Origin: Marsupella aquatica
Lineage: Eukaryota; Plantae; Marchantiophyta
Assembly (NCBI GenBank): GCA_973895155.1
Contig: OZ316898.1
Coordinates: 19,107,292 to 19,171,291, forward strand
Direction: 5' to 3'
Length of the DNA stretch: 64,000 nucleotides
Position numbers and translations under genes: made by a program. Shown here piece by piece: positions 25,306-61,548 of the stretch (the first letter of the stretch is position 1; every line of letters begins with the position of its first letter). The notes under the pieces were generated by a model, which was given only the letters and a program-made list of their open reading frames with translations, was not told the origin of the DNA and searched no databases.

Positions 25306-25399
25306 TTATAGAGTCATTAAAGAACCCAAGAGATATGAAGATTAAAATACTCAATAGTCATTCCAGACACCGGTCATAATTGTAGAGTCATTGATATAG

Positions 25400-28300: not shown

Positions 28301-29880
28301 ACTCATCATTGTCCAACCACTAGTTGCAACATAAGCACTTTGGACACATGTTTTTGCGTTTACTTAAGGCATGATGCACCTTTGGGGAAATCACTCCCAA
28401 GTCATATGACTTTGGAGTGATTTGCCAAAAGTGTGTCCATGCATGCACACCATCACATCCAAAGGCAAATAAAACTTGTTTTTTGGTTCTCCAAGAGGTG
28501 GTGCTGCACCAATGGAATGGGCAGGGGAATCGTGCTTCTCAGTATGGTGTGGGTGCGGGTTTAGGGAAGAGGAATATTCCAACCTTGCAAGGAATCTATT
28601 GCAGGCTCTCTTTGGAGGTACTAGGGCCTTTATTGGGTCATATGTGACCAATGACTTGTCATAAATGCCAATGACCAAAAGTCAAGTCATTAAAACTGTC
28701 ATATGGGAAGTCATATAAGTCAAGTGACTAGACTTGTGGTCATTTGTGTGGCCCTTCATGCAGTCATTAAACAGAAGCACAAATGACAAGTTTGGGGCTA
28801 GGGGCTGAAGGTGGGCCCTAGAGTGCCATGTGGCCCCACATAGAGCTTGCAACCCCTCCACTATGTGCAAAATACTATATTTACTATTCTCCAACCACTA
28901 GTTGCACCATTAGCACCGTACCTCATGTGAGTTTTTGCGTTTACTTAAGGGATGATGCAACATTGGGGAAATCACTCCCAAGTCATACAACTTTGGAGTG
29001 ATTTGCCAAAAGCACCAACATGGATCATGAATATCTTATGTTCCTAAGGCAAATGGAGCCATTTGTTTTGTTCCTCAACGAGATAGTGCAACACCAATGG
29101 GATGGGCGTGGTAGTGGTGCTTCCCTCTATGGTGGACATGTGTGTTGGTTAAAGGAATAGGAATATTCCTATTTTACAAGAAATCTAAAGCGGCCTCTTT
29201 CTTGACGTACTAGGACCTTCATTGGGTCATTTTTTAACAAAGTCGTGTCATAATTGCCAATGACTACAAGCAGGGTCATTGAATTGGTCATATGGGATGT
29301 CATATAAGGCAAATGACTGGACTTTGAGTCATTTGAGATGTCCCTAGTGCAGTCATTGGAGACAAGCATGAATGACCAATTTGAGGCTAAGGGTTGGAGG
29401 CGGGCCCTAGAGTGCCATGTGGCCCCACATAGAGCTTGCAACCCCTCCACTAGGTGCAAAATACTATATTTACCATTCTCCAACCACTAGTTGCACCATT
29501 AGCACTTTGGAGCTGTGTTTTTGCGTTTACTTTAGGCGGTATGTAACTTTGGGGAAATCACTCCCAAGTCATACAACTTTGGAGTGATTTGCCAAAAGTG
29601 TCACGTACCCTGCATGCATACCGTCCTATCCAAACGGCAAACAAAAATTGTTTTTGTCTCTCCAAGAGATATATAATGCAATACTAGTGGAAGACTATGT
29701 CCTTCTATATAACTATGTCATGTATGTGCCGATATTTGGATTTGGATATATTCTATTAAATTCCAAATGAATTGTAAGGGGGCATTCCGAGAGGTAATCT
29801 ACTCTTCATTGGGTCATTTTCACATAATGGTGTGTCATTAATGCCAATGACTACATATAGTGTCATTTTTATAGTCATAT
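25400..29880. repeat. Tandem array of ~580-bp units (about 8) inside CACTA-1
   Basis: The core GGGGAAATCACTCCCAAGTC..GACTTTGGAGTGATTTGCCAAA recurs near 25520, 26100, 26680, 27257, 27835, 28384, 28965 and 29551. Confidence 0.92.
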
Positions 29881-30540: not shown

Positions 30541-33468
30541 TGTGGTGCGTCCCATGGCTCCCTAAACCCAAGAAACCCCCCAGCTCAAGCCGATTCCCGC
30601 AGGTTTCGCGCTTGGCGAGGCCGTTTCCGCGGCTTAGCGGCATGGGACGCTGCTAACCTTCTACTACTACTGTTAACATTTTACACACATATACTGGACA
30701 GATCCTTCATTGGGTCATGAGATACGTAGCCGGCCTAATCTAGGCCTTCCCCTGTCTTCCCCTCCGTGACACTTAAATACTGCGGCTTGTTTCTTCAGCC
30801 GCTCCGTTTGGTTGTCGGCCCGCCGCTGGAGGTTCTCCATCTTCCTCGTGATTTCCTCCAACTCCTCCTGGGTCTCATCCAGGTCCTTGCGTGCCTCCTC
30901 TAGTTCCTTCTGGGCTTCCTCCCGTTCTTGTTTCAAGGTAGTCCTCTCCTCCCGGGTTGCTCTTAGCTCTTTGTCGAGCTCTGCAATGATGACAGACTCC
31001 ATCTGGTTCATCTTGGCATAAGTCTGATCGAGCATCTCATCCTTCTCCCTTAGGTCGGCCTTGAAGCTGGCCGTCAGGGATGCAAGCTCCTGCTGCAGCG
31101 CCATAATCCCTTGATAGGATTTCCCTAACTCGGCCTCCTTCTGCTCAAGGGCTCCGCAGATTTTCTCGAGCTCCCCCTTCAACGCCCATTCCTTTCTTTG
31201 GGTCTCCGCCATGGCCCGGCTGTTGGCTGTTATGTGGGCCTCCTTTGTATTCTTCAGCTCTTGCTTCCACTTCTCCCTCTCTTTGATCGTGTTGGCCAAC
31301 TCTCCCTGCGTCTGAGTCAGTTTATCCTTGATATTCTGATTATCAGCCTGCGCGGTGTCCAACTGCCCCTGCATGATGTTCAGCTCATGCCGTTTAATCC
31401 GCAGTTCATCTTGGGCTTTCTTGGCCGCCCTTAGATCTTCAATCTCGGCTTCCATCCTCCTAAGCCGCCGAATGACCTCGTCCTTCTTGCTTCTCTCTAA
31501 AGCCACCGCTTCTTCTAATTGGTGCTTCTCCAACTGCTCCCTATGGAAAAAGGGTCCTACCTCCAACTCCTCTCCAAAGATGTCGAGCGCAAGTTCCTCA
31601 CCATACTCCATGGCTCTATTCTTAGCGTAGGTGGAGTAAGTAGAAGTGACCGGCATCGCCCATTGCGGCCTCTGCTCCCAAGCCGACTTGCAGATCTCTT
31701 CAATCGTGGCTAGAGGTTTGCTTCCTTTTTTGGCTAGCTGCCTGATGTCCTCCGGCCAATCTCCTCCTGGTAAATCCTTTTCCCTAGCCAGGGCTGCCTC
31801 CTCTTCCTGCCTGATTCGCTCCTGAAATTCTTGCACCGTCTGTTTTATGCCGTCAAAGCTCGGGGGAGCAACATCTGGTGGGGGAGACTCAGGGCTACTC
31901 TGCTGGTTGGGGTCCCCTCGCACTACCCTTGGAAGTGTGGGGACAAACCGGCCACAGGTCCTTACTCCTAGAACATGATGGTCCGACCCATACCCGGAAT
32001 TATCATGGCTGCAGTCCTCCACTGCCTCCTCTACTTCTTGGACGTCCGGCTTCTCCCTCTCCTCTTCGTCGGTAGGAGCTTCAAGCAATTCTGCCTCAGA
32101 TTCGGAGCTTGAGATTCCCACATACATTCGAACACCTGGCTTGGATTCCGGCCTGATTCTCTCCTTGTCTCCAGCAAAGGGGTTTTCTCTTGTGAGCCGG
32201 TGTAGGCCTACCTCTGTAGTAGTGTCCTGCATTGTTGCCGTTGCCGTTGTTGTTGCCGATGCCGATTTCTTTTCTTTCTCCAGTAGTTTCAGCAGACTCT
32301 GCATGCCTGGTTGCTGCATCGGCAAGTCCTCCTTCCTGGGCCTAAACACCTGCTTGATTGTAGGGCTAACAGGTGGTTGAGGCTTCTCAGCCAACGGCCT
32401 TGGCGTTGGAGCTTCCTCGGGTGCCCTTACCTGCAGGGGAAGTACCGGGGCAAAAGTCTGACCTCTGGCATACCGGCACAACAGCGGCATGTGATAGCCA
32501 AGCCGCGACATGCTCCCCATGCCGATTACCTATTGCTCCTCCTTTAAGATCTTCTTCAATTGGTTGAGGAGGTACCCGTTGTAGTCCCGGCTTGGGTCTG
32601 GCCTTTCTGCCAGATAGACCTGTGCCTTGCCGATCTCTGCCCTCGGCAAGTTACAATGCATGGTCACCCGCAAGAAGTCGATCATCTCTCCTATGTGCGG
32701 GTTGGTGCAGGTGTTCCGGAAGAAGCCATTCTTCGTTGATGGCCCGGGGAACGACCGGAACTCCTTGTCAGGCAAGGTCTTCCTGGTATCAACTTTGGTC
32801 TTATTGCCTATCGGCAAGCCAAACACTTCGGCAATTACCTTGGGAGTAAGATAGAAATCCTTCCCATATATCCTCGTGCAATTGGTCTCGGGTTCCCATG
32901 ACCCCACGAATTCTAATAGGTCTGACTCCGGTACCTCCGGCTTCAGCCATGGTAATCTTACAAAGGCCTCTAAGCCGGATCCGGCCATGAAGCCTGGGTA
33001 CTTCTTGGTCTGCATGGCCGTGAAGCATGCATCCTCCTCCCGTGCAAAATGTAGTTGCACCTCCACCGGTAGGGTTGCCGCCCAGCCCTTCCAGGTGTCA
33101 TCCCTGGTTGGAATGGCCTTGATGGGATCGACCTCCTCCTCTTCGGCTTCTCCCTGCCTCCTACTCTGCTGCTCGGCTGGCTTCTTTGGTGCCGCCGACC
33201 TCGTTCTTTTTGCCGGGGTGGCTTCATCGTTGATGGCTCCCTTCCTCTTCATCTCTGCTGCCGTGGAGGTTTCTCCTAGCACCGTTGCCTGGGTCCACCT
33301 TTCCGTGCTACCCTTTAATTCCCAGTGTATGTCGTTGCAGTTCTTGATGGCCTCTCGGATGCCAATGACGCTGTCCTTGCAAAACAAAAGATCGTCGAGT
33401 TGATTGGAAGTAGGCGTCCACATGAACTCGTCCTTGATGAGTTCGCCTCCTAAGAAAGCCGTCTTCTG
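30541..33468 (-). repeat. 3' LTR with two deletions
   Basis: Nearly identical to 38084-38310 joined to 39525-42223. It lacks the first ~514 bp of the LTR and a ~1.2-kb internal segment. Confidence 0.9.
30715..33423 (-). pseudogene. 3'-LTR copy of the LTR-encoded accessory ORF (truncated at both ends, one CAG>TAG stop at 32530-32532)
   Basis: ORFs 33423-32530 and 32520-30715 are colinear and near-identical to 42361-38996. Confidence 0.85.
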
Positions 33469-36004
33469 GTGGAGTAGTTCCGTTCGGCATCGGCAAGCTG
33501 ACGGCTTGCGAAGTATATGGGATGGTCCCTTCCTTTCTCATCCAACTGACTTAGTACTGAGCCGATACAGAAGCCCGAGACATCTACAAAAACATGAAAA
33601 TCTTTGTTCCAGTCCAATGCTATCATGACTGGGGCCTCTACTAACATCTGCTTCAATTCTACCACCGCTGTGACTCGTTCGGGTGTGGGTTCAAAGTCTG
33701 CTCCTGCCTTGAGCATGTTGGTTAATGGTAAAGCTAGCTTGGCAAAATCCTTGATGAACCGGCGATAGTAACCAATGCATCCCAAGAAGGATCTTACATC
33801 CTTTATGTTCTTAGGTTGCATGATATCTAGCCATACTGCTAGCTTACCTTTGTCAATCTCAATGCCCTTCCTTGATACCTTGTGACCTAGTAGCACCCCC
33901 TCGGTTACTGCAAAGAAACATTTATCTGGGTGTAACTTGAGACCCACCTCTCTACATCTCATGAAGGTTTTCCTGAGGTATTTAGCATGTTTCGATGCCT
34001 TCCCGAATACTGCAAAGTCATCAATGAAGATTTCCATGAACTTTCTCAAGTAATCATGAAAAATGTTCACCATTAATCGTTGAAACATAGCTGGTGCGTT
34101 GCAGAGTCCAAACGGCATACGATTGAAGACATAGATCCCCCATTCCGTGATGAAGGCCGTCTTGATTTGATCTTCCTGCCGAATCCTGATTTGGTTATAA
34201 CCAGAGTATCCATCCATGAATGAATATAGTTCATGACTGGCTACCATGTCTAGTACCATATCAGTAAACGGTAAAGGAAAATGGTCTTTTAATGTTGCTT
34301 CATTCAGCTTCCTGTAATCCTGACAAACCCGGATCTTGGGTTTACCATCGGGTCCAGCTTTCTTGGGAACTATCACAATTGGAGACACCCAGTCTGAATG
34401 CAGGACTGGAGTGATGAATCCAGCTTCCACTAGTTTGTCGATTTCTGTTTTGACCAGCAGGGAATACTTCGGGTTCATCCTTTGAATTGGTTGTCGAAAT
34501 GATTTGGCTCCTAACATGAGATTAATTCGATGTTCCCCTAGTGTTGGATCTACTCCCTTTAGATCTTGGTGACTCCATGCAAACACATCCTGAAATTCAA
34601 TCAATAAGTCACTGATCTCTTTCTCGAGCTCAGGTGCTAGGTTTCTCCCTAAGTTCAGTTCTCTTCCCTCTCCTAAGTCGAGCTTCCGATATTGCCGTGC
34701 TTGGATCATATTAATCTGCTTCTTCAAATTCGGGTCCAGTTCGGCTTCCAGTCTCTCCAATCTCATACCTCCATAAACTGGAATCTCGGCTGGACTAGCC
34801 GAGTCGGTCCCTTCCTTGGTGTCCATAGATTGTCCCCTTGCCGGTCTATTCGGTTTTGAATTGGTGGTCGGCTCCCCTTCCTGCCTTGGCTCTGGATTGT
34901 GTCTGTCCATCTCATCCACCTCTTGCTCCTGAGAGTCAGGCCGCTGTGCTCTCTCGGCTTCTAATAGGGCCTCAATTTGTTCTGCCCTCGTAATCGGCTT
35001 GTATGCCGATCCCTTGGTATTTAATTCCTTGCCGATGATCGATGGCGTTGTGAACCCTGCCGGCTCTGCCACAACGCCTGCAGAAAATCCACTATCCCTG
35101 CTATTGCTCCCCACTTAGCCGTTTCATCCAATTGGTCTACATCCTTTACTTCCTCCGGAATTGCAGCTAAAAAGGTGGATTCTATTGTAAAGCAGTCCTC
35201 AACCTCTTCGTCTTCTTCTTCCAAGTCACCTTCCATTGGTTCTTGCCATAATCCGCTGGGGGGTACCTCTGGTCCAAAGACACTTTCTTCGGTTAGGTCA
35301 GTGAGGCATTCTAACCAACGTACTTCATCGGCTGACTCCAGTCCACTGTCGTACCCATCTACTTCCCTTATGCTTTTCCTACGGTCATCCTTAGTGTCCC
35401 AGGATACCGTGATAGAGGGGGTCCCGAAAGTGAACTGCTTTTTACCCCAATCTTCTATTACCTCGGCTAGGTACAGCCATGGCCTACCAATCAATAGCCG
35501 GAATGACGTAGGATTTACCGGCTTCATTACTACATAGTTAATGCTAAAGAAGATACCTCCTATCTCTGTCTTGATGCCGGTTAACACTCCCGTGGGAATG
35601 ACCTGATATCCATTGGCCATGTTCAACACTCTTCCAGTCATCTCCGGTGTTAGACCCCACCCTTTTGCTGTTGAATCAATCATAATACATACCCCTGATC
35701 CTCCATCGATGGGTACCCGTAGTAATAATTCTCCTTGAATCATTAATGGTAATGCTGGGGCTCCTTGATCTTCTTCTATCATTAGTACGTCGGATCTGGT
35801 TGCTACCTTGGGTAATCTCGGCTTGCCGAGAATAGCCTTCCTTAATTGCTTCCGGAAGTACGGGCTATTTTTCAATAGTTGACCTACTGTTGCCGAGACT
35901 CTAGATTCTAGTACATCTTTAGCCAGGTCATAGGGAACAATCGGCTTCTCCTCTGGTGGTGTCTCCGTCTTGGATTCGGCCAGTTTTGCCACGCTAGTCT
36001 CCAT
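33450..36004 (-). pseudogene. pol: pol: aspartic protease, reverse transcriptase and N-terminal RNase H region; frameshift near 35.1 kb; truncated
   Basis: Protease motif VPIDGGSGV and LLIGRPWL. RT motifs CQDYRKLNEATLKDHFPLPF, MPFGLCNAPAMFQR and EIFIDD. RNase H start FHVFVDVSGFCIGSVLSQ...IYFASRQL...ERNYST, then an abrupt junction to LTR sequence. Confidence 0.93.
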
Positions 36005-38014
36005 AGCTGTTGGGTCTTACGAAGCAAACAATGCTTTTGCTCGTTTTACATCCTTGGCAATGGCTTCGGTATTCTCCAGGGTTTCTAATTCTCTTAGTTG
36101 TTCCTTAACACTAGCCGTAACAGAGGGGTAGAACAACTTAGGATGATCTCGATTGAAGTCGCTATCTTGTGAAGGATTGGTTTCACTGGTGGGCTCATGG
36201 CTTACCTGTATTGCCGGAGCCCTCCCTTCTCCTTCTGTTGATGTTGACGAAGAGTCGATCTTTTCCTCCGTAACCTTCCCTTTATTTTTGGCCAGCCCAT
36301 CCCACCTTTCCTTCCTTCTGGTAGATCGAGTAGAGACCCGGTAGCAATCATGATCTAAATCCTCCTCTGAGAAGGTTGATAGGGCTTCGGCCTCATCATC
36401 AGATGGTACGAACTCTGCCTCGGCATCCTCTTGCCATCCTAGTTCGATGTGGTTGATTTAAACTCCTCCGGGGGTAGTGCCTGGCGGTAGGATCTTGACC
36501 GGCAAAAGTTTATGATTTGCGGCCAGGCCTGCCAACCAAGTAGGACATTGCCCTAGCATATGACCTTCCTGTCGGCATCCCATACATAGCTGAGCTGGTT
36601 GTCCATCACCCTGTTTGCGTGCATTCGGTCATTCTCTAGCAAAATGGCCAGGTTGACCACAATTATAGCACGCCGCAAATCTTTGCACATTCGGCCTAGG
36701 AGGTACTGACGGGTTCTGAATAATCCGAGGATACATCTCTCCTGGATTGTTCCTTAACCCTGACCATAGAGATGCAGGTCTGTTGGATAGGTCTCGTGCT
36801 CCAGTCTCACTGATGCCGAAAACACTATCAGCGGCATCTCCTAAAAAGTACTCTACTTCTCCCTGACATGGTCTGATCTCGGCCACATGCCGAACATGAT
36901 TAGTATTAAGCTTAGGACACGCATCTTTATGGTGTCCGGTTTTATAACATAAGGCACACCATACAGAGCTATCCTCCTGTACTACCTTCTTCTTCGGTTT
37001 TACCTCTGCAATGATAGCCTTAAGTTGCTCGGTAAGGGCTATGATGTTATCTAGTGGCTTAGCCTCCAGCTTGACTTTCGTCTTCCCTCTCCTTCTGCCC
37101 TTCCTTTTGGTAGTTTTTTCTTCTTCAGAACTAGAAGATGACTCACTCTTGCTACTCCCACTATCCGAGCTTGACTTATCACTTCTAGACTTCTTAGAAT
37201 GTTTCTTCTTCTTATCTTTTTTCTTATGGGGTGATCCCTCTTCTGATGAGGAACTCTCAGACTTAAGCTGTTTCTTCCGGCTTGTGATATCTGCATTAAT
37301 GTATAATTGAATATCCTTAATTGCTTCGGCTAAAGTCTCCGGGTTCTCCTTCCTAATTGCAAAACTCATCTTCTGTGGCAAAGCATTCACCAACCATTGA
37401 AGTTGCATACCTTCAGATGCATTGGTCTTTGTACGTCTTACCAGTTTCTGAAAGCGTTGCAAGAACTTCCTGAAGGATTTGTTCTCCTTGAACCGAAGTC
37501 GTCCCAACTTCAGCACTCCTAGTTCTGAAGTTCCAATTGGTCGAAACTCCTTAACAAAGAGTGTTTTGAAGATATCCCAGATGGCTTGATCTTCCACATC
37601 TAATGCTCTGTACCAAGGCCTAGCCTCACCCTTGAACAGGCCGGGAAGAATCTGCATCTTGATGGCCGATTCTCCATTTGCTGCAGCGGTTCCCTCGAAA
37701 TCATCCAACCATTCGTCCGGATCCTCATCTCCTCTCCCATGAAATGCCTTGTAATGTATGCGCGACCGCTGGCTCAATCTGGTCCCTGGCCTCTCGTCTG
37801 GCCGTGCCTCTGGTTCCCCCATGTCGGTTGGAGACTCACTTCTCCTTACCGACTCTTCTTCTGGTATGTCTTCTTCGACGCCACTTCCAGTTTTGGAGCT
37901 ACCAGCTCTTTCTGCCCCTCTCAGTCGCTGTGTATCATGCCACCCGGCGAGCTGCTGCAGTCGAGCTCTCTCCCGTTGAATCACTCTTTCTTCCCTCGGC
38001 GTAAGGTCAGTCAT
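36005..38014 (-). pseudogene. gag: gag with three CCHC zinc knuckles, premature stops, in frame with the protease
   Basis: Capsid-like FHGRGDEDPDEWLDDFE and GEARPWY. Knuckles CALCYKTGHHKDAC, CYNCGQPGHFARE* and, after the stop at 36629, CMGCRQEGHMLGQC. 38014 and 36004 are in the same frame. Confidence 0.88.
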
Positions 38015-38061
38015 TACCTACGCTTCCGTTCTAACTTCATATCTCATGGCTTAAGAAATGC

Positions 38062-38079
38062 CCCCTCCATCTAGCGCCA
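38062..38079 (-). promoter_or_regulatory. Primer-binding site, probably tRNA-Asn(GTT)
   Basis: TGGCGCTAGATGGAGGGG lies 4 nt after the LTR end. It is complementary (1 mismatch) to the plant tRNA-Asn 3' end CCCCTCCTTCTAGCGCCA as I recall it. Confidence 0.8.
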
Positions 38080-38083
38080 AAAA

Positions 38084-41000
38084 TGTAGTGCGTCCCATGG
38101 CTCCCTAAACCCAAGAAACCCCCCAGCTCAAGCCGATTCCCGCAGGTTTCACGCTTGGCGAGGCTATTTCCGCGGCTTAGCGGCATGGGACGCTGCTAAC
38201 CTTCTACTACTACTGTTAACATTTTACACACATATACTGGACAGATCCTTCATCGGGTCATGAGATACGTAGCCGGCCTAATCTAGGCCTTTCCCTGTCT
38301 TCCCCTCCGTCTTGTTAGGTATGTTTGGATTCCGCCGCCGGAATGATCCCCAATAGGCTTGGTTAAGCCGCTAAGACCTCTCTCAGCTCGACACATCCAA
38401 CTCTCACTCCCCTGCTTACTTTCCTTCCTTTTGGTTGATGTGGGCACTCTTCACACAAGTTAATGCGACACACAAATAGCAAAATGACTCATTCTGACTG
38501 AGTCATACCATGCACTTGCCATACAAACAGTACATCTCATACACAAGCTCTGCGAACTAAGCCGTGAGGCCAACTCTATTCAGCTCTTAGGCATGAGGAA
38601 ACATGAATATACACAAGGGTCACTGTATGACTAACCGAGAGCTTCTCGTACTACTTGATCCCAGCCCGGCTGGTGCAAACTAAAAACTTGCTAAAGAAGA
38701 GGCTCTGAGCTCCCTGCTGCCCAGGTACTTATCCTGATAGTGGATCCGCCATTCTTTGCATCGTAAGCCTAATCTACCTAACAGTAATCTACTTGCCCGA
38801 ATCTACCTATGTACAGCAAGGCATGAGCACAAGTGTTGCTCCTACCAGTGGAACCGCAATCCCACTAAGCTAAGTGTCAGGGCCGCTCCTGGTCCTGATC
38901 CTAATCCTAAACTTGGAGATCAGTGCCCGCCCTGCCCACTCACGCCTCCTCCCTCCACGTCCGCCCTCCCTAAAAGGAACGGCGCCCTTGCACCGTCATG
39001 ACACCGGTGGAGGATCCTTAATGGACGCCCCCAACGCTTCCTCCTTAGCCACTGCCGTAGGTTCATTCTCTGACAGATTACCTGCCCTTGACTGAGTCAA
39101 CTCTCCATCGGCCTGACTGGGTCCACCATCGGCGTCGGCATCGGCTCGGGAATCGGTTACGGCCTCAGCCTCGGCTACAGTCTCCCCGGCCTGCTCAAGA
39201 GGCGGATCTGGAATACCGGCCTCATTACTGAGTAGTTCGGCTTGGGCCGCACCACCCCCACCTGTGATGATAGCGGGATCTATTGCCGTATTCATGCCGG
39301 AGGATGGTGCTGGTTCTACCTCCTTGGTCACCACGGCTTGTGGAGTCGGATTACTCCTTGACCCTGAAGGTTTCCGCTTTTTCTTCTTTTCTGGTTTGGC
39401 AGTTGGTCCCTTCCCCTTCCCACTTACTTCCGGCACTGGTGCAGGTGGCGCGGCTTTTTCTTCGGCCAGTACCACTCCTGGTAACTTGGTTGCCCCAATT
39501 GGAGTTGGGCCTGATGAAGACAAGCACTTAAATACTGGGGCTTGTTTCTTCAGCCGCTCCGTTTGGTTGTCGGCCCGCCGCTGGAGGTTCTCCATCTTCC
39601 TCATGATTTCCTCCAACTCCTCATGGGTCTCATCCAGGTCCTTGCGTGCCTCCTCTAGTTCCTTCTGGGCTTCCTCCCGTTCTTGTTTCAAGGTAGTCCT
39701 CTCCTCCTGGGTTGCTCTTAGCTCCTTGTCGAGCTCTGCAATGATGACAGACTCCATCTGGTTCATCTTGGCGTAAGTCTGTTCGAGCATCTCGTCCTTC
39801 TCCCTTAGGTCGGCCTTGAAGCTGGCCGTCAGGGACGCAAGCTCCTGCTGCAGCGCCATAATCCCTTGATAGGATTTCCCTAACTCGGCCTCCTTCTGCT
39901 CAAGGGCTCCGCGGATTTTCTCGAGCTCCCCCTTCAACGCCCATTCCTTTCTTTGGGTCTCCGCCATGGCCCGGCTGTTGGCTGTTATGTGGGCCTCCTC
40001 TGTTTTCTTCAGCTCTTGCTTCCACTTCTCCCTCTCTTTGATCGTGTCGGCCAACTCTCCCTGCGTCTGAGTCAGTTTATCCTTGATATTCTGATTATCA
40101 GCCTGCGCGGTGTCCAACTGCCCCTGCATGATGTTCAGCTCATGCCGTTTAATCCGCAGTTCATCTTGGGCTTTCTTGGCCGCCCTTAGATCTTCAATCT
40201 CGGCTTCCATCCTCCTAAGCCGCCGAATGACCTCGTCCTTCTTGCTTCTCTCTAAAGCCACCGCTTCTTCTAATTGGTGCTTCTCCAACTGCTCCCTATG
40301 GAAAAAGGGTCCTACCTCCAACTCCTCTCCAAAGATGCCGAGCGCAAGTTCCTCACCATACTCCATGGCTCTATTCTTAGCGTAGGTGGAGTAAGTAGAA
40401 GTGATCGGCATCGCCCATTGCGGCCTCTACTCCCAAGCCGACTTGCGGATCTCTTCAATCGTGGCTAGAGGTTTGCTTCCTTTTTTGGCTAGCCGCCTGA
40501 TGTCCTCCGGCCAATCTCCTCCTGGTAAATCCTTTTCCCTAGCCAGGGCTGCCTCCTCTTCCTGCCTGATTCGCTCCTGAAATTCTTGCACCGTCTGTTT
40601 TATGCCGTCAAAGCTCGGGGGAGCAACATCTGGTGGGGGAGACTCAGGGCTACTCTGCTGGTTGGGGTCCCCTCGCACTACCCTTGGAAGTGTGGGGACA
40701 AACCGGCCACAGGTCCTTACTCCTGGAACGTGATGGTCCGACCCATAGCCGGAATTATCATGGCTGCAGTCCTCCACTGCCTCCTCTACTTCTTGGACAT
40801 CCGGCTTCTCCCTCTCCTCTTCGTCGGTAGGAGCTTCAGGCAATTCTGCCTCAGATTCGGAGCTTGAGATTCCCACATACATTCGAACACCTGGCTTGGA
40901 TTCCGGCCTGATTCTCTCCTTGTCTCCAGCAAAGGGGTTTTCTCTTGTGAGCCGGTGTAGGCCTACCTCTGTAGTAGTGTCCTGCATTGTTGCCGTTGCC

Positions 41001-42737
41001 GTTGTTGTTGCCGATGCCGATTTCTTTTCTTTCTCCAGTAGTTTCAGCAGACTCTGCATGCCTGGTTGCTGCATCGGCAAGTCCTCCTTCCTGGGCCTAA
41101 ACACCTGCTCGATCGTAGGGCTAACAGGTGGTTGAGGCTTCTCAGCCAACGGCCTCGGCGTTGGAGCTTCCTCGGGTGCCCTTACCTGCAAGGGAAGTAC
41201 TGGGGCAAAAGTCTGACCTCTGGCATACCGGCATAACAGCGGCATGTGATAGCCAAGCCGCGACACGCTCCCCATGCCGATTACCTGCTGCTCCTCCTTT
41301 AAGATCTTCTTCAATTGGTTGAGGAGGTACCCGTTGTAGTCCCAGCTTGGGTCTGGCCTTTCTGCCAGATAGACCTGTGCCTTGCCAATCTCTGCCCTCG
41401 GCAAGTTACAATGCATGGTCACCCGCAAGAAGTCGATCATCTCTCCTATGTGCGGGTTGGTGCAGGTGTTCTGGAAGAAGCCATTCTTCGTTGATGGCCC
41501 GGGGAACGACCGGAACTCCTTGTCAGGCAAGGTCTTCCTGGTATCAACTTTGGTCTTATTGCCTATCGGCAAGCCAAACACTTCGGCAATTACCTTGGGA
41601 GTAAGATAGAAATCCTTCCCATATATCCTCGTGCAATTGGTCTCGGGTTCCCATGACCCCACGAATTCTAATAGGTCTGACTCCGGTACCTCCGGCTTCA
41701 GCCATGGTAATCTTACAAAGGCCTCTAAGCCGGATCCGGCCATGAAGCCTTGATACTTCTTGGTCTGCATTGCCGTAAAGCATGCATCCTCCTCCCGTGC
41801 AAAATGTAGTTGCACTTCCACCGGTAGGGTTGCCGCCCAGCCCTTCCAGGTGTCATCCCTGGTTGGAATGGCCTTGATGGGATCGACCTCCTCCTCTTCG
41901 GCTTCTCCCTGCCTCCTGCTCTGTTGCTCGGCTGGCTTCTTTGGTGCCGCCGACCTCGTTCTTTTTGCCGGGGTGGCTTCATCGTTGACGGCTCCCTTCC
42001 TCTTCATCTCTGCTGCCGTGGAGGTTTCTCCTAGCACCGTTGCCTGGGTCCACCTTTCCGTGCTACCCTTTAATTCCCAGTGTATGTCGTTGCAGTTCTT
42101 GATGGCCTCTCGGATGCCGACGACGTTGTCTTTGCAAAACAGAAGATCGTCGAGTTGATTGGAGGTAGGCGTCCACAGGAACTCGTCCTTGATGAGTTCG
42201 CCTCCTAAGAAAGCCGTCTTCTGTAGCTCCCACAATCGAGCGAGCTCCTGCCGTTCTCGAGCTGCCCTTTCTAATTCCTTGTCCTCGTAAGTCTTGATGT
42301 ACTCAGTTGCCCGTTCGATCAGGCATCCCCAGAAATGTGCCGCTTGATTGACGTTGCTCATACCCTCCTTAGGTCGATCGTCGGTATCTACTCTCCCCCC
42401 GAGTGCTTGCCTAAGCAGCTGACAGTAGTTGGCCTCCTGTAGTCGTCTGCCTAGTTCGTGCTCGCAAATGAGCCACCATCTCCTGCAAGCGCTCCTTACC
42501 CCTCTCCTCTGCCGGTCCTTCTTCCCGTTGATCCTTCCTAGCCGCCGACTCTTAACGCGCCCTAACCCTAATCAAGTTTTCACCCTCAGCGTCCTTACCT
42601 CCGGCCTCGGCCCGGGTTCCATGGTTGCCCATAATTGTTTATATTTTCCTTGTTTTGTCCCTATACTAAGGTGTTCCTAGGGTGCCTTCCTGCTTTACCC
42701 ACTTAACTGGCCGAGTGATTCCTGTCTAGGCATCACA
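38084..42737 (-). repeat. 5' LTR, 4654 bp
   Basis: Starts TGTGATGC, ends GCACTACA, followed by the PBS. Both ends match the TSD-flanked solo LTR at 44361-45816. Confidence 0.9.
38996..42361 (-). pseudogene. LTR-encoded accessory protein (~1121 codons with one internal stop; may start at 42622): plant-transposon-protein-like domain plus long coiled coil
   Basis: ORFs 42361-40427 and 40411-38996 are in one frame, split by a TAG that reads CAG in the other LTR. Motif LLEFVGSW...IYGKDFYLTPKVIAEVFGLP resembles the Athila ORF2/Transposase_32-type domain. Followed by ~250 aa of E/K/Q-rich heptads and a KKKKRK basic patch. Confidence 0.85.
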
Positions 42738-42849
42738 GGTAGGCCTAAGCAGTGAATAGGTTTTAGGTGTGTGAAGTCCATAGATGGACTACATGTATGG
42801 ACTATATATGAAATCAGACTAATGTTTTGCCCATTTGTGCAGTTGGTGA

Positions 42850-45800
42850 ATGCAGCCTGTGAAAGGAAGATTGCAGGGGTTGTCACATCCTGTGAATGCT
42901 TATGAGGAGGCCCGAAAGCGGAACATAGAGCATAATGTCAGCATTATGCGTGATCTAGGACTGGGGCCAGACTGCATGCTGATGTGTGTGTTAAAATGTC
43001 TATTGCAAATTTGATTTAGTAGATATATGGAGTTGTCAGGTTCATGTTCTGTTTTCATATTCCAGATTGGTCTCATACTAGTATGGAACCTGTACATAAG
43101 TACCATTATTACTGTGTTGTAGATTCTGCTTGCATGTATGTTTGATCTGCATTGGTGTATGTTGATGATTGCTTTGTTCCTTAGAGGCCCAACCACACAT
43201 GTACAACGACAGAGAGAAAAGCCTGCATTGGTGAAAGGTACTTCAACTGGAACATTGCCAAAGAGGAGGAGCTCTAGACTATCACAAGTTACCAAGGTGA
43301 ACATGGCAGAGTCTGGTGATGATGGCTATGCCAGTGCTGGGTATGACACTAAGGATTCTGACATTGGAGGGTCAGAACCTGAGAGTGAACAACAGGTAAT
43401 GCTTGAACTTCATCATCCTAAACCCTAAATCCTTGTCCTTGTTTCAAAGTATTTGTTAATATGCCTACGTTGTCCATGATGTAGGTACAGAAACAAAATC
43501 GTGGTCCTAAGAAGACTGGGCCTAGTGGAGGTGGGCTGGTGAGATGTTGGAAAGACCCAGACACTGGACTGTTATATGAAAGTGAGTGGATTGTACTGAT
43601 ATACCTTTTCAGTGTGTTTGGAAATTGATATTTTACATTTTCCTCAAATTCACTGAAGTGCTTGGTGGTGTGTGTTTGTTTAGTGGTTCCATCAGCATCT
43701 GAAGGCAGATCAGGTCAATCTGACGTACTACATTCCAAAGGATCTTCAGGTAATACAAATCTGCTCGTCATGCATATGCAAGTGCATTTGCTCAACTTTT
43801 CAATGTACATATTTTCTGAGTGAAAGCATGTGTGTGCATTGCAGGCGGGGCCTCTGAGATGCGCAGGGAACGAAGGCATGCTAAGAAGATGTTTGATAAT
43901 GCTGCCAAAGTACGAAGGAATCAGGGAGATTTGCCCAAACACATTAAAGTGAGTATTGTACTTTTTTTGAATGTAGATTTAGACATAGATCCTCTCTGTT
44001 ATTGTGTGTATAAAACCTAGACTATGCATAAATTCCAGAGTTATGAATTGACATTGCATGTGAAATGCAGATTTATGACAATGATATTGATGATTCTGAT
44101 CCCAACAAACAGTACTGGTTGGAGGAACTTCGTGGCAATGTACTCAGAATCTTTGATGTATCAAAGCCAAAATGGACTGATCATCCACGAGTTCATATAA
44201 CCAGTGTGTGGAAGAACATGGCAGCTGAGTGGGAGTATGTGGGTGGGGAATTTATTGACAACAAATTCCGGAGTCATTGTCGTGGCATATTGAAGAGAGA
44301 GCGCCATAAAATGCATGTTTACTGGAAGAAAGTTTGCAATGAGGATCCAACCAAACCTGGTGTGATGCCTAGACAGGAATCACTCGGCCAGTTAAGTGGG
44401 TAAAGCAGGAAGGCACCCTAGGAACACCTTAGTATAGGGACAAAACAAGGAAAATATAAACCATTGGGGCAACCAAGTTACCAGGAGTGGTACTGGCCGA
44501 AGAAAAAGCCGCGCCACCTGCACCAGTGCCGGAAGTAAGTGGGAAGGGGAAGGGACCAGCTGCCGAACCAGAAAAGAAGAAAAAGCGGAAACCTTCAGGG
44601 TCAAGGAGTAATCCGACTCCACAAGCCGTGGTGACCAAGGAGGTAGAACCAGCACCATCCTCCGGCATGAATACGGCAATAGATCCCGCTATCATCACAG
44701 GTGGGGGTGGTGCGGCCCAAGCCGAACTACTCAGTAATGAGGCCGGTATTCCAGATCCGCCTCTTGAGCAGGCCGGGGAGACCATAGCCGAGGCTGAGGC
44801 CGTAACCAATTCTCGAGCCGATGCCGACGCCGATGGTGGACCCAGTCAGGCCGATGGAGAGTTGACTCAGTCAAGGGCAGGTAATCTGTCAGAGAATGAA
44901 CCTACGGTAGTGGCTGAGGAGGAAGCGTTGGGGGCGTCCATTAAGGATCCTCCACCGGTGTCGTGACGGTGCAAGGGCGCCGTTCCTTTTAGGGAGGGCG
45001 GACGTGGAGGGAGGAGGCATGAGTGGGCAGGGCGGGCGCTGATCTCCAAGTTTAGGATCAGGACCAGGCTCCTGCCTTGCTGTACATAGGTAGATTCGGG
45101 CAAGTAGATTACTGTTAGGTAGATTAGGCTTACGATGCAAAGAATGGCGGATCCACTACCAGGATAAGTACCTGGGCAGCGGGGAGCTCAGGGCCTGGCT
45201 CTTCTTTAGCAAGTTTTTAGTTTGCACCAGCCGGGCTGGGATCAAGTAGTACGAGAAGCTCTCGGTTAGTCATACAGTGACCCTTGTGTATATTCATGTT
45301 TCCTCATGCCTAAGAGCTGAATAGAGTTGGCCTCACGGCTTAGTTCGCAGAGCTTGTGTATGAGATGTACTGTTTGTATGGCAAGTGCATGGTATGACTC
45401 AGTCAGAATGAGTCATTTTGCTATTTGTGTGTCGCATTAACTTGTGTGAAGAGTGCCCACATCAACCAAAAGGAAGGAAAGTAAGCAGGGGAGTGAGAGT
45501 TGGATGTGTCGAGCTGAGAGAGGTCTTAGCGGCTTAACCAAGCCTATTGGGGATCATTCCGACGGCGGAATCCAAACATACCTAACAAGACGGAGGGGAA
45601 GACAAGGGAAGGCCTAGATTAGGCCGGCTACGTATCTCATGACCCAATGAAGGATCTGTCCAGTATATGTGTGTAAAATGTTAACAATAGTAGTAGAAGG
45701 TTAGCAGCGTCCCATGCCGCTAAGCCGCGGAAACGGCCTCGCCAAGCGTGAAACTTGCGGGAATCGGCTTGAGCTGGGGGGTTTCTTGGGTTTAGGGAGC

Positions 45801-47470
45801 CATGGGACGCACCACACCTGGGCCATCTGGTGTTGATCCAAAGAAATGGGCAGCTTTGGTATCTCATTTCACCAGTCCAGCATTGATATCTTTGAGTAAA
45901 CAGATGACTGATAAAAGAGCACGAGTGCAAGATACCAGTCACTTTGGTAGAGGAGGGCATGCTGCAGCAGCAAAGAGAATGGTAAACTGTCTATATCATT
46001 TTCACTATCAATTATGTCTTGTTTGTGAATCTTGATGAAAATAGACTCTGAGTTTCTCATTCATTGTGTGTTTGAACAGAAGCAGAAGAGAGGATCAAGC
46101 CCAGGTATATCTGACCTGAAAGAAAACCTTGGTAGTCAGGGCTCATTGCCAAAGGTGACAATGAGCCCATCATTGGCAAGTGCAGAAGGTCAGACTGGTA
46201 GTTTTTTGGGAGCAAAGGTGAGCCCGTCATTGGCAAGTGGGGAGGGTAAAAGCGCTAGCTTACTGGGGCAAGGATACAGACATGGATCAGCTGTGAGTAT
46301 TGCCATTCCAATCTGATTTGTACATCATTTTCCATTTGATAGAGTGTTGTGTCGTTTGTTAGTTTGACAATGAGAATGTTGTGTTGGTTTGTGGTTCATT
46401 TACAGACCCCACATTCAAAAGAAGAGATCACTGCCATTGGGGCTGTCAAATTGGATGTCGATGAGTTGAAAGGCACTGTGAAGGAGTTGACAAACATGAT
46501 GACTATATGGATGGCACATCACTCCAGTAATGCACAAGTTCCAACATTTGTTCCTAGTCACAGTAAGTTGACTACAGCTACCAAAGAAGGTAGTAGAAAA
46601 CGATCTCTTACTTTTTCAGGTGATAATGGAGGTAAAATTCTCTATCATCTATTCATTGTCAATTCAATGTAATTATTGTGGTGTATATATGTCATTGTAT
46701 GTTTATAATGTTCTTGCATGTTCTAGTGTGATTATATGTTGCTGGTGTATACATGTTTGTTTATGCATTTCTCTTGTATGTGTTTTATGACAGCATCTTT
46801 AGGGGAGCCTCCTGTGTCGCAGGGAAGACCAACTGACACAGCTAACAGTGCTCTGAAGCAAACTGAATTGGAAGTGAACCTTTTGCCATCTAAGTTGCCC
46901 AAAGAAGCCATTTCAGATGCCTTTCAGTTACCAGAGGATAAGTCAACTCAGTTGACACCAGATGTAACCCCATAATCATCTGAGTTGCCAAAAGAAACTC
47001 CTGTTCCAAGTGAGCATGATGACACTCCATCAACTAGAAAGGGAAAGAAGAAAAGGAAGAAAGGATCTTCAGCAAATGCATCACCTGCACAGAAGAAACC
47101 AATGCAGTCTCCTAACCCCATTGCAAAGGTAAATGTGTGTTTGATTTGAGTGTTCTTCTATCTTTCAATTTCTGTTTATTGCATTTTTAACAAAATGTGT
47201 TGTTCACAGTTTGCAAGAGGAGATTTGGTGAAGATGAAGAGCGTTGTGGACAATTCCATGATAGTGGCAGAAGGTGAGGTGACAGGGCTGCCAGGAGAAG
47301 ATAAGTTTCATTGTGCAGATTTTGAAAGCCCTTTCTTGCGAGTGCGTGTGATTGAAGTGTTTGTAGATGTGGCATTGCCATTTGCCAATGCAGGGGAGAA
47401 ACAGTCTAAATTATCTGATGTGAAAGGGATGAATGCCCTATGGAACTCTAGATTGCTTAAGAAGCAATAG
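42850..47470 (+). pseudogene. CACTA-1 TnpA-like multi-exon gene, disrupted by a solo LTR
   Basis: Coding pieces NAYEEARKRNIEHN, RRSSRLS, KRERHKMHVYWKK...PGPSGVDPKKWAALVSHF...SHFGRGGH (Ptta/En/Spm-type) and terminal VAEGEVTGLPGEDKFHC...RVRVIEVFVDVALPF (Tnp1/En/Spm-type). Removing the LTR restores KPGPSG. The start is approximate. Confidence 0.78.
44361..45816 (+). mobile_element. Solo LTR (1456 bp, internally deleted) of the same gypsy family
   Basis: TGTGATGC...GCACCACA with perfect TSD CCTGG (44356-44360 and 45817-45821). Reverse complement of 42737-~42630 joined to ~39495-38084. Confidence 0.96.
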
Positions 47471-49429
47471 AAATAGCACTCTGTCAAGAAACACTAGACA
47501 TGATAGAATCAGCTCTATTTTTCTATAAAACATGCAGAGTGATTGGTATGTCAGGTTGTAACAATTGACAATCTAATATTATTGATGCCAATGTAATTTT
47601 GTTTCATAAATTTGCATTGAGTTCAATAGTTACTGTGAGACTTATGAAGGTATCTTGTATGAATGTCAATTGGATTTGTGATATATATGGAATATTTCTT
47701 TAAGTTTTCATTCAGCAAATCCATTGAATGGCTTTGTAATGTATGATTTTTGAATGACATGAAGTTTTATTTATCATGATCACTTAAATTTGAATTTCTC
47801 CAAATCATTGAATATTTCACCTAAATGACTGGCTAGAATGACTGATGTAATGGTCATTATCCACTACTATCTTTGTGACCAATATGATTCAACTCTGGTC
47901 ATTAAAGACATAGACTAAATGATTCAAAGAATGACATATACAATGACCGCTCTCATGGTCATTATAAACAAGTCCACTATGACTCATTTTATGTCATTCA
48001 AGACATGTCATTAATGACTAATGTGTATCTTTATGTGTCTCCTCCTAATTGAACCACGTGTCTTAATATGACTTGTTTATATCGTAGTCATTTTGGACAC
48101 GTCCAAAATGACCCAAATATATTGCCAAATGGTGAATCCTCTTTGAACCATGTGTCACTATTTGATTTGTTATATAATGTACGTCATTTTGGACAAGTCC
48201 AAAATGACCAATGTTATTTGCTTTTTGATGGCCATGTGTCATTGTGTGATTGGGTACGGGGACCGTCGACGGTCAATGGCAATTGACCGTTGATGGTGAT
48301 TTGTGTCGTCATTTTGGACCGTTCAGCATTTATGACCATATCATAAAAACTGTCATTTAGGATAGTATGAAATGACCACATGTTTTTAGCGTCATTTGTC
48401 CAAAAGGACCGTGACCAAAATGTCCGTTGTGACGCGTCTGGAAAGACAAGAACGATTGCATCATTGTTTTGTTAAAAAGACCTGATTAATAGTCATTGTT
48501 TCCGTCATAAAATACATTGTTTTCTACTAGTGCACTAGTAGAAAATGGGGCCTTTTATGACTATGACACATATGACTTATGTGCTCAAATGACAAAATAT
48601 GTAAATGACATAACATAAATGACATTGAAATGACTGTCCAAAATGACGGGGTGCAAAAAATGACTAATACTTGCAATAGTGTCATTTAAACCAATGAGCC
48701 AAATGACTTTGACTGCTATAATGACAACAATCATGAGTTGTAGTCATTTTGGACAGTCTTTGTGAATGACACAATTAACAAAAACTCTGTCATATCAGTG
48801 TTTCACATATGGGAAGTCATTTCAGACGACGGTGACTAATGACTAATAAATCAAATATGCAAATATCAGTGTTTAAAAACGTTAGGAGTCATTTAAACCA
48901 AAAGTGATAAATGACATGATAAATAACATATGACTATTTTGAGGTTTATGGTTTAGTATATGTTTTAGGGTTTAGGGTATGATTAGTCATCCAAAATGTA
49001 TGGTAGTATATATAAAGACTAGTGGCACTCACATATTAGATTTGAAATACATTTAGAGACATAACAAGCCTTCTTTTGTTGTGAGTCTCATCATTAAATT
49101 GATGTACAACTTAAAGGCTTGATAATCTCTAATAAGTATGTACATTTAAAGATATACTTGCACCCATTCATTACATCTTTCCTATATATGCCAAGGACTC
49201 CTGAAGTGTTTACATTCCTTAAGTTGTATTCACATTTCACATGTTTGAGTATATATGGGGGCATGCAAGGTTGCCAAATAACACTCTCGGGCATAGGTCT
49301 AGGGTTTAAGGTTTAGAATTTAGGTACTACATGCCTACATTTGCTCATGTTATTTTTTTCAATATATTATTCATGTTATTTGCAAAGGATTCCCAATCAT
49401 TTTTGCTCTCACTCAACTTTCTAGTCATT

Positions 49430-52175
49430 TGACAAGTGCCGCTAGATGTCATTTATGCAAATGTCATTTAGGATGTCAATGTTGTGGTCATGTATGCCAT
49501 GCAGAATATGACTCTTAAGAGCCTTTGGTGGCTGATTGACCCCATTGGTGATAGGGGCCGGCCATTAAGGATGATACCCACTTCACATGGTGCGGGATAG
49601 GGTACTTGACAACCCTGGGCCACTAGTTATGCCACTTGGCCTCCACAACACTTTCTAAAACACACATTTTGCATCATGGAAGGGCATCACCCAACTTTGG
49701 GCAAAACACTCCCAAGTTGTATGACTTTGGAGTCATTTGCCCAAAGGGATGCAAATCATTCTAATTTGGTCATTTGCAAGGGATCTTGAGTCATTCATGC
49801 GTGTGACTAAAGGTTTTTGTCATTTGTGGAGTGTTGAGGGGTGTCATTTAAGCAAATGACACAAAAATAAATCATTGATGATGTCAATGCGGCAGTCAAG
49901 CATGCCATGACAATATGACTCATTGGGGCCTTTTGGGGCTTATTCGCAATATACGCGATCGTAGCCGGCCATTAGGGATGCTACCCACTCCACATGGTGC
50001 GGGATGGAGTACTTGTACACCCTGAGCCACTAGTTATGCCACTTCGCCTCCACAACACTTTTTAAAACACACATTTTGCATCATGGAAGGGCATCACCCA
50101 ACTTTGGGCAAAACACTCCCAAGTTGTATGACTTTGGAGTCATTTGCCCAAAGGGGTGCAAATCATTCTAATTTGGTCATTTGCAAGGGATCTTGAGTCA
50201 TTTGTGCGTGTGACTAAAGGTTTTTGTCATTTGTGGAGTGCCGAGGGGTGTCATTTAAGCAAATGACACAAAAATAAGTCATTGATGATGTCAATGCGGC
50301 AGTCAAGCATGCCATGGACAATATGACTCCTTGGGGCCTTTGGGGGCTTATTCGCAATATACGCAATTGTAGCCGGCCATTAGGGATGCTACCCACTCCA
50401 CATGGTGCGGGATGGAGTACTTGTACACCCTGAGCCACTAGTTATGCCACTTCGCCTCCACAACACTTTTTAAAACACACATTTTGCATCATGGAAGGGC
50501 ATCACCCAACTTTGGGCAAAACACTCCCAAGTTGTATGACTTTGGAGTCATTTGCCCAAAGGGGTGCAAATCATTCTAATTTGGTCATTTGCAAGGGATC
50601 TTGAGTCATTTGTGTGTGTGACTAAAGGTTTTTGTCATTTGTGGAGTGCCGAGGGGTGTCATTTAAGCAAATGACACAAAAATAAGTCATTGATGATGTC
50701 AATGCGGCAGTCAAGCATGCCATGGACAATATGACTCCTTGGGGCCTTTGGGGGCTTATTTGCAATATACACGATCGTAGCCGGCCATTAGGGATGCTAC
50801 CCACTCCACATGGTGCGGGATGGAGTACTTGTACACCCTTAGCCACTAGTTATGCCACTTGGCCTCCACAACACTTTTTAAAACACACATTTTGCATCAT
50901 GGAAGGGCATGGCCCAACTTTGGGCAAAACACTCCCAAGTTGTATGACTTTGGAGTCATTTGCCCAAAGGGGTGAAAACCACTTGCATTTTGTCATTTGC
51001 AAGGGATATAGAGTCATTTGTGCGCTTGACTAAAAGTTTTTGTCATTTATGTAGTGCCAGGGGATGTCATATGAGCAAATGACACAAATAGGGGTCATTC
51101 ATGATGTCAATAGTGCAGTCCTACATACCATGGACAATATGACTCTTTGGGGCCTCCGGGGGTCGACTGGCCATATCCATGATTGTAGCCCACCATTAGG
51201 GATGCTACCCACTCCACATGGTGTGCGACAGGGTACTCACCAACCCTGGGCCACTAGTTATGCCACTTGGCCTCCACAACACTTTTTAACACACACATTT
51301 TGCATCATGGAAGGGCATGGCCCAACTTTGGGAAAAACACTCCCAAGTTGTATGACTTTGGAGTCATTTGCCCAAAGGGGTGCAAACCACTCCCATATAG
51401 CCATTCCCAAGCCATTTTCAGTCAATTGTGCCTGTGAGTCATTGTGTTGGTCATTTTATGAGTGCTAGGATATGTCATTTATTCAAATGACACGGAAACG
51501 AGTCATTGTTCATGTCAATGTAGCAGTCATGCATGCCATGGACAATATGACTCTTCTGGAACTCAGGCCGCTGATTGGCCATTGTTGGTGATAGGGGCCC
51601 CCCATTGAGCATGCTACCCACTCCACATGGTGTGGGATAGGGTGCCCCCCAATCCTGGGCCACTAGTTATCACTAATTGGCAAAGCAATAGTTTTATGAC
51701 CAAACTTTTGCACAATGGTAGGGCATCACCCAACTTTGGGCAAAACACTCCCAAGTTGTACGACTTTCAAGTCATTTGCCCAAAAAGGTGCAAACCACTC
51801 ATATTTTGTCATTTGCAAGGGATTTTGCGTCATTTATGCAAGTGACTGAATATTTTTGTCATTTATAGAGTCATAGGATACGTCATTCCTGCGTATGACA
51901 CAAAAACAAGTCATTGATGATGTCAATGCGACAGTCAAGCATGCCATGGACAATATGACCCGTTGGGAGTTTCGGGGGCTAATTTGCAATATCCGTGATT
52001 GTAGCCGGCCATTAGGGATGCTACCCACTCCACATTGTGCGGGATGGGGTATTTGACAACCCTCGGCCACTAGTTATGCCAGTTGGCTTCCACAACACTT
52101 TTTAACACGCACATTCTGCATCATGGAAGGGCATCACTCAACTTTGGGCAAAACACTCCCAAGTTGTACGACTTA
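49430..52175. repeat. Tandem array of 408-bp units (~6.7 copies) inside CACTA-2
   Basis: The core CTTTGGGCAAAACACTCCCAAGTTGTATGACTTTGGAGTCATTTGCCCAAAG recurs at 49694, 50102, 50510, 50918, 51326, 51734 and (half) 52142. Confidence 0.95.
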
Positions 52176-55100: not shown

Positions 55101-55572
55101 TTAAATGAGTTTTTAAAAGGATAGAGCTTTTAATCCGATGTAGTTAGCCCCCCCCCCAAGAAGAGCTATAGCCCTGTCTATACTATCCCTAGTCGCTACT
55201 GAATTCTACCTGCTCCAACAAGTATTGAATGAGTACAATTTCAGTGAACAATATTTAATTTGTGTGCTCTATGGTCTTCACAGTGGTTGCCTTTTTGAAT
55301 AAACTTCTCTTTGACTCTTCTGAACATTTTTTCCAAGTCTGCCTGACACTAAACCCTGAACTGCTTGCTCTCTGTGCAGAGCACCCTTAAGCCAAAGCCA
55401 AGTTATTTTTGACATTGCTTGTACTCCGTGAGATCGAGGTGGGCAGGACATCTCCTGATTTGTACTAAGACCTCTTACAGTAAGTACACTATGTCCACAT
55501 ACCATCTTTGTACTTGTCTGTTGCCCTTCTCCATACACTTGTAATATTCAAGGTAATTGTGCAGATCCACGC

Positions 55573-56286
55573 ATGACATCGGGCATGGCACGAGCTGCTG
55601 CTCCCTGGCTGGATCCAAAGTTTGCCCATAAAGAACACCTTCGCTTGGATCCCCCTTGTTGTTTTGAATGTGATGAGGGAGGTACTGTTTTGTTCTGCGA
55701 TGGGCCTTGCAGTCGTCATTTCCATTACTTAGTTCATGGCCAGCAAGCTCCTCAAGAGCCTGATGGCCATGGGCCTGAGTGCACACCCGTTGCCATTTCT
55801 AGAGGGCATGATTGGGCCAAGGAGTGGCTCTGTGACCTCTGTCAGCAGAACCAAGGTCGTTGCTTTGCTTGTGGACTACTTGGCCAAACCCTAAAACCCA
55901 CTGCAGATGAGCCCCTTGTGGTCCAGTGTGCACAAGATGACTGCTCTTCTTTTTATCACGTGGGTTGTCTGCGGACCATACTGAGGGCAAGGGAGTTGCC
56001 TCTCCTGGGGTACGCACAAAACTCAGATGCACATCCCGCTGCTCTGATATGCCCAAGGCATTATTGTGATGTTTGCAAGGAGTATCGGGATGGCATCTGG
56101 GAATTCATCCAGTTTTGTAGGTGCCCTTGTGCGTGGTGTAGGGATGAGGGACCAGAGGCAGACAAACACCTCAAGAGAGGGGTGAAGGGTAGAGAAACGT
56201 GGGATATTGGTCCATGGCGTATGGTGTACTGCAATCGCCATGTCATTCCAGAGAGTTCTGATGTGCCACCTCATGATTTTAAATAG
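55573..56286 (+). CDS. Stand-alone EDM2/NSD-type composite PHD-finger protein, 237 aa, inside CACTA-2
   Basis: CFECDEGGTVLFCDGPCSRHFH...WLCDLC...RCFACGLLG...VQCAQDDCSSFYHVGC...ICPRHYCDVC...RCP...VYCNRHVI follows the recalled EDM2 pattern CAICDNGG..CEGSCLRSFH..CPNC..CFICK.LG..FQC...CGYFYHPHC..CPLHKC..C..CRRCP..IYC.EHEI. The frame is uninterrupted, and a splice acceptor TTGTGCAG ends at 55564. Confidence 0.85.
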   Translation: MTSGMARAAAPWLDPKFAHKEHLRLDPPCCFECDEGGTVLFCDGPCSRHFHYLVHGQQAPQEPDGHGPECTPVAISRGHDWAKEWLCDLCQQNQGRCFACGLLGQTLKPTADEPLVVQCAQDDCSSFYHVGCLRTILRARELPLLGYAQNSDAHPAALICPRHYCDVCKEYRDGIWEFIQFCRCPCAWCRDEGPEADKHLKRGVKGRETWDIGPWRMVYCNRHVIPESSDVPPHDFK

Positions 56287-61464: not shown

Positions 61465-61548
61465 ATGGTTTGAAGATATTGTACAGTCCGGTTTCATTTG
61501 GTTGGGAGTGGGATCATACTAACATGGCATGCCATGGTCTAGCAGTGA

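Follow-up and report, generated by a model that had tools for sequence, protein, structure and literature searches.

A 1,208-codon reading frame within the long terminal repeat of a Ty3/gypsy retrotransposon family from Marsupella aquatica, with a possible anti-silencing role

Analysis of a 64-kb stretch of Marsupella aquatica contig OZ316898.1 (the window; all coordinates are window positions) revealed a Ty3/gypsy retrotransposon whose 5' long terminal repeat (LTR) of 4,654 bp (38084..42737, minus strand) entirely contains an extra open reading frame (ORF) of 1,208 codons (38996..42622, minus strand). This particular copy is dead and has been rearranged; the layout, a gene within the LTR, is almost certainly real and a property of the family. 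It runs counter to the usual assumption that plant LTRs do not encode proteins and is apparently new to the literature. With modest confidence, we read the element as a high-copy Ty3/gypsy family with a selected LTR gene, the product of which is likely an anti-silencing factor like VANC of the VANDAL transposons and would bind the short word WGCCG.

The limits of the LTR, which the earlier note on this DNA had fixed from the target site duplication (TSD) of a solo LTR and from the primer-binding site (PBS), were confirmed by self-comparison of the window, in which both ends are common to the solo copy, and by steps in contig depth at both ends. The LTR opens with TGTGATG and closes with CACTACA, has the imperfect terminal inverted repeat TGTGATGC / GCACTACA, and is followed by TTTT, a PBS-like 18-mer (38062..38079, minus strand, 4 nt behind the LTR), which we take to be of the tRNA-Asn type, and gag. 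The extra ORF begins with an ATG at 42622 in the context ACCATGG, 115 nt inside the LTR, and its terminator (38996-38998) lies 912 nt short of the LTR end; the sense frame, originally put at 3.4 kb and correctly placed entirely between the LTR ends, runs all 1,208 codons from this ATG. Internal stops in the 5' copy are found at codons 17 (42572-42574) and 732 (40427-40429), and the remaining five frames of the same stretch contain 25-63 stops each; a repeat scan of the window detected no tandem array as a cause of the open frame. The 912-bp tail (38084..38995, minus strand) is non-coding, bears indels of 1-2 nt across copies and shows no canonical TATA or AATAAA in a motif scan; the main promoter, R and U5 would be located here.

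Downstream of the PBS, gag (36629..38017, minus strand; Retrotrans_gag and zinc knuckle in Pfam) is closed by a premature stop, and pol (33469..36016, minus strand; protease (PR), with reverse transcriptase (RT) and partial RNase H (RH) found by Pfam) runs in two frames and is interrupted inside RH, where a short stretch common to both joins it to position 42223 of the LTR. The remaining RH, the integrase and the polypurine tract have been deleted. The 3' LTR remnant consists of two pieces (30541..33468, minus strand; self-comparison) corresponding to 42223-39525 (98.1%) and 38310-38084 (97.4%); it has undergone two deletions, one of its first 514 nt and another of 1.2 kb, and keeps 2,699 nt of the frame with one stop (32530-32532). 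The large element has no TSD, CTACC and GGGAT standing at its flanks, and its 5' and 3' LTRs are not siblings and form no natural pair.

Within the window, a TSD flanks only the solo LTR of 1,456 bp (44361..45816, plus strand; family D10 in the repeat scan), which lies between 5-bp CCTGG duplications at 44356-44360 and 45817-45821. This short copy, together with the rearranged, TSD-less state of the large element, weighs against the proposed layout and suits the alternative that local rearrangement produced the 4.65-kb LTR, in which case the genuine LTR would be about 1.5 kb long and the ORF would normally lie between pol and the 3' LTR. That alternative is largely refuted and very improbable. 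The first 116 nt of the solo match the LTR, after which a 3.1-kb jump leads to 39499 and the common LTR end; imperfect 19-nt direct repeats bound the jump and thus mark the solo as the product of a deletion, and even this short form keeps part of the extra ORF, though only the last 168 codons. An intron was ruled out as the origin of the gap, which has no GT-AG ends. Since the solo and the 3' LTR are deleted and the large element is rearranged, the earlier claims that both LTRs carry the frame with a single stop each and that the gene survives in the solo LTR were overstated for the window, the 5' copy moreover having two stops from 42622. The 5' LTR and the solo stand back to back, 1.6 kb apart in window DNA. 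The solo interrupts an exon-like frame that is readable on either side of its TSD (42738-47500) and presumably resembles a CACTA TnpA-type gene.

Regarding the normal form of the LTR, the LTR stretch is wholly or partly present in 13 sequencing runs of 10 studies, four of which have at least half of its words; one of those runs may be the window's own source, and 5 of the 15 listed runs were aligned to the window. In two runs (X1 and X2), each of the 20 bins over 38038-42717 exceeds every one of the seven gag bins in depth, about threefold on average, a ratio that is no copy number, and the depth drops at 42737; over the first 216 nt of the solo, depth begins exactly at 44361. No contig among the 22 listed of 451 pieces from four runs bridges the deletion junction of the solo, and loose contig ends on both sides of this junction read on into ORF sequence, so that intact members with 1.5-kb LTRs, which the earlier note had raised as counter-evidence, did not emerge. 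The LTR start was found only upstream of the ORF in the self-comparison of the window. A contig of 376 nt from another organism (X6) comprises 106 nt ending in a purine tract, the directly adjoining LTR start and the ORF start, while further contigs at the LTR start have unrelated flanks, as expected of separate insertions. Both window stops are minority states in all four runs: at 40429 at least 94% of depth (88% in one run) differs from the window's stop letter, and at 42574 at least 97%, which supports the proposed upstream extension to the ATG at 42622. Evidence from outside the window thus supports the reading that intact family members have an accessory gene within the LTR; its location specifically in the unique 3' region (U3), as first proposed, is inferred.

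The same layout was found in relatives. A metagenome scan with generic RT patterns covered 15 of 64 parts, and three of 80 loci (L001, L002 and L068) are close relatives that were examined in detail; all three have a sense ORF 430-510 nt behind a purine tract. The RT of L001 is 56% identical to that of the window, its 5' LTR ends in GCTCCCACA, followed by a PBS, and the inverse of GCTCCCACA occurs at a single site of its contig, which lies 87 nt past the stop of pol and abuts a purine tract, as had been anticipated for the LTR start and as the X6 contig also shows; the sense ORF starts about 500 nt past this LTR-start site. In L002 and L068, whose far LTR ends lie off their contigs, a purine tract and TG come directly after pol and the ORF 430-500 nt further on, the L002 ORF being cut off at 62 codons. 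A purine tract ahead of the ORF is a further argument against local rearrangement. In a search of 2,382 frames with a domain profile, L068 gave an E-value of 3e-4 and L001 one of 0.055, below threshold, and by this profile both ORFs are detectably homologous to the extra ORF of the window. Two "unnamed protein products" of Calypogeia are homologues of the extra protein, and in the relative P0002 the integrase follows RH. Tblastn and blastn searches of the 80 metagenome loci with the ORF and the LTR gave no match, nor did word-index protein searches with the extra ORF, in which candidates were long proteins only; viral contigs gave 14 pattern matches and no relatives. In the RT tree, calculated without L068 (short alignment) and without REXdb references, the window, L001 and L002 group with metagenomic elements in a starred clade that neighbours Riccia sequences and is separate from the angiosperm set.

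Regarding selection, among the LTR indels listed, at least six of 1-2 nt fall in the 912-nt tail and a single one, of 3 nt, falls in the ORF (12 further entries are additional to these), a distribution with p ~7e-5 if indels were uniform. Between the two copies in the window, 50 of 2,699 sites differ, 25 of them at third positions, with a ratio of non-synonymous to synonymous differences (pN/pS) of 0.29; under a methylation-aware null, 24 of 48 differences are synonymous against 16.4 expected (p=0.017). Because sibling LTRs should drift neutrally, this synonymous excess and the missing TSD suggest that the two ends of the large element derive from different insertions. Two counts weigh against constraint, only 7 of the 20 top variants relative to the window copy and 3 of 9 variants in the disordered tail of the solo being synonymous; the non-synonymous variants likely include private post-insertion mutations. 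Constraint on the frame, the lack of which the earlier note had named as a refutation, is supported overall.

The element has gag, the order PR-RT-RH, a TG...CA LTR, a PBS and a TSD, as Ty3/gypsy elements do, and like Athila has no additional RH and no chromodomain; its 5-bp TSD is of Athila-type length, and Athila PBS are expected for tRNA-Asp, Asn or Ala. An extra ORF in the internal region, typical of Athila and Tat, was not found, the ORF lying between the LTR ends. In the available sections of the literature cited here, plant extra ORFs are placed in the internal region (PMC7264820; PMC6317226, including MOESM5; PMC4408406; PMC3485330; PMC11963269; PMC13468544; PMC12885004; PMC11728184; PMC13547354; bioRxiv 2024.09.27.615353), and only the tail of the CRM polyprotein enters the LTR (PMC3059260). 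In the corresponding parts of reviews, the function of plant Ty3/gypsy extra ORFs is an open question (PMC4408406; PMC11963269), and no extra ORFs are reported for Tat-like elements of mosses (PMC4408406). Athila, Tat/Ogre (PMD-coiled-coil) and Retand (TRP28-Smc) elements share with the window element PR-RT-RH, a 5-bp TSD, an extra protein with globular domain and coiled coil, and very long LTRs, known up to about 5 kb; their extra ORFs are described as internal, either ahead of gag or in the stretch that separates pol from the 3' LTR, whereas here the ORF is wholly within the LTR (PMC6317226; PMC4408406; PMC7264820; PMC11963269). Retrosat2/RIRE3 likewise combines an LTR of >3 kb with a selected extra ORF, but this ORF0 is described as preceding gag-pol rather than as belonging to the LTR, and in grasses only (PMC3485330). 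In CRM group A, coding sequence also enters a plant LTR, but as the polyprotein tail of a chromovirus and not as a free-standing gene (PMC3059260). Literature phrase searches for ORFs located in or within LTRs brought up only a review of mouse mammary tumour virus (MMTV) and no retrotransposon; an earlier description may exist elsewhere. The product of MMTV sag is about 320 aa long. The ORF of the window is several times longer than this vertebrate retroviral gene, which encodes an unrelated membrane superantigen. Nevertheless, MMTV sag/naf is likewise a complete ORF in an LTR, with its own promoter in U3 for MMTV (PMC9412291).

The extra protein comprises an N-terminal conserved block of no known family (41882..42349, minus strand; homologues P0125, P0126 and P0131), a core globular domain (41198..41809, minus strand; GL..F..LPW, beta-hairpin and helices) with weak VANC/DUF1985/PMD resemblance, a predicted coiled coil at about residues 780-1030 (39533..40285, minus strand; heptad scan), of which residues 801-1000 are proline-free, and a basic cluster KKKKRK (39371..39388, minus strand; sequence scan) as candidate nuclear localisation signal. 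Pfam gave no match for the core domain or the extra protein, including ATHILA, PMD, Transposase_28 and Transposase_32, and only sub-threshold coiled-coil matches; the named domains of the Athila, Tat/Ogre and Retand extra proteins were matched neither by Pfam nor by profile. Transposase_32, the first guess at its identity, was not supported, there being no profile match to two Transposase_32 proteins. Nothing significant was obtained for the core domain with Foldseek against PDB and viral structures, or with VIA (first model) and a profile search of PDB sequences, and the ESM Atlas gave no usable match for the window's own domain. The long coiled coil would suit an env-like membrane or movement protein, a label used for sense 3' extra ORFs of Athila-type elements (PMC7264820), but this identity is hardly credible, as the protein lacks any hydrophobic segment (19-residue hydropathy peaks at 0.83 and nowhere exceeds 1.6).

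The element (33469..42737, both strands) is rich in WGCCG, a candidate binding site for the protein. There are 96 copies of this word over 9.3 kb, spread across both strands and every phase, and they cover 95 of 370 CG sites; GCCGA alone has 61 copies against 23 expected, is 12 times denser than in the rest of the window, and remains in excess under synonymous-codon shuffling. The relatives have enriched words of their own, CCGGA in L001 (189 in 7.5 kb, 1-7517) and L002 (98 in 3.3 kb, 1-3314), in coding and non-coding DNA, and AAACCG in L068. VANC, an accessory protein of Mutator-like VANDAL transposons, also has a coiled coil, a dense family-specific word, bound by VANC21, and a fold (PDB 9LNK, VANC21) that the core domain model weakly resembles; VANDALs are, however, class II elements of eudicots with a 9-bp word in non-coding tandem repeats (PMC5735166), whereas here a retrotransposon has a 5-bp word dispersed through coding DNA with no tandem array, and binding and demethylation would apply by analogy only.

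A VANC/PMD-like DNA-binding role of the extra protein is weakly indicated, and an anti-silencing function is favoured by a narrow balance. If the gene lies in U3, it would be copied to both ends by reverse transcription and would therefore be kept in every undeleted solo LTR. Expressed from a promoter at the left end of the LTR or from a subgenomic RNA, the protein would enter the nucleus, oligomerise via its coiled coil and bind clusters of WGCCG by means of its core domain; family members in cis and in trans might then carry less DNA methylation or fewer repressive histone marks. Two points weigh against this mechanism: the fold resemblance to VANC is weak, and the word score, though strong, is not unique, being equalled or exceeded in 4 of 62 other loci. 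Both suit a rather unlikely alternative with the same layout, in which the protein has another nuclear job (integration targeting, chromatin tethering, RNA export or transcriptional activation), the excess of WGCCG stemming from a host-factor site or mutation context. A domain plus coiled coil is also the usual build of Tat/Ogre/Retand extra proteins in the available text (PMC4408406; PMC11963269); however, a conserved host factor would not predict a word that varies between related families, and the lack of excess in the rest of the window is contrary to a genome-wide mutation bias.

The gene might instead lie downstream of the main transcription start site, in R/U5, heading the genomic RNA like an Ogre 5' extra ORF behind a very short U3. 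TATA-like words 21 and 43 nt upstream of the ATG, the absence of a canonical TATA from the LTR tail, and a TATATAA 160 nt upstream of the L002 ORF favour this placement. It is nonetheless improbable, since by the standard LTR cycle it would require a minus-strand strong-stop DNA exceeding 4.5 kb, and gag would have to be translated after a 3.6-kb ORF; moreover, a second promoter within U3 has a precedent in MMTV P2 (PMC9412291).

The layout accounts for the 4.65-kb LTR length, and it predicts protein-coding solo LTRs, which annotation pipelines would call host genes, while surveys of the internal region alone would overlook such extra ORFs. With a domain, a candidate word and relatives with different words, the anti-silencing role is directly testable. 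As a tentative extension, for which the chances are well short of even, a bryophyte Ty3/gypsy lineage may have moved into its LTR an anti-silencing gene that is VANC-like and sequence-specific; every LTR, solos included, would then be a self-contained cassette (promoter, gene, poly(A) site and binding words) shielding the family in trans, with protein and CCG-containing word co-diversifying. If this extension is true, VANC would have its first counterpart among retrotransposons, and the formation of solo LTRs, by which hosts usually remove elements, would preserve a counter-defence gene.

Elsewhere in the window, 55400-61500 holds a CACTA-type element (Transposase_21, DUF4218 and weak DUF4216 in Pfam) with a PHD-finger frame upstream in it (55459-56286). 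Tandem arrays at 25394-29880 and 49374-52178 have periods of about 580 and 400 bp and copies 75-85% alike, and an old CG-rich duplication (11279-13919 / 18969-21889) is 72-78% identical, with frames without Pfam matches. Among the metagenome loci, L054, L016, L027, L058 and L049 have strongly enriched CG-containing 5-mers (CTCGC, ACTCG, CGTAG, GGCGA), which are candidate family-specific target words of their retroelements.
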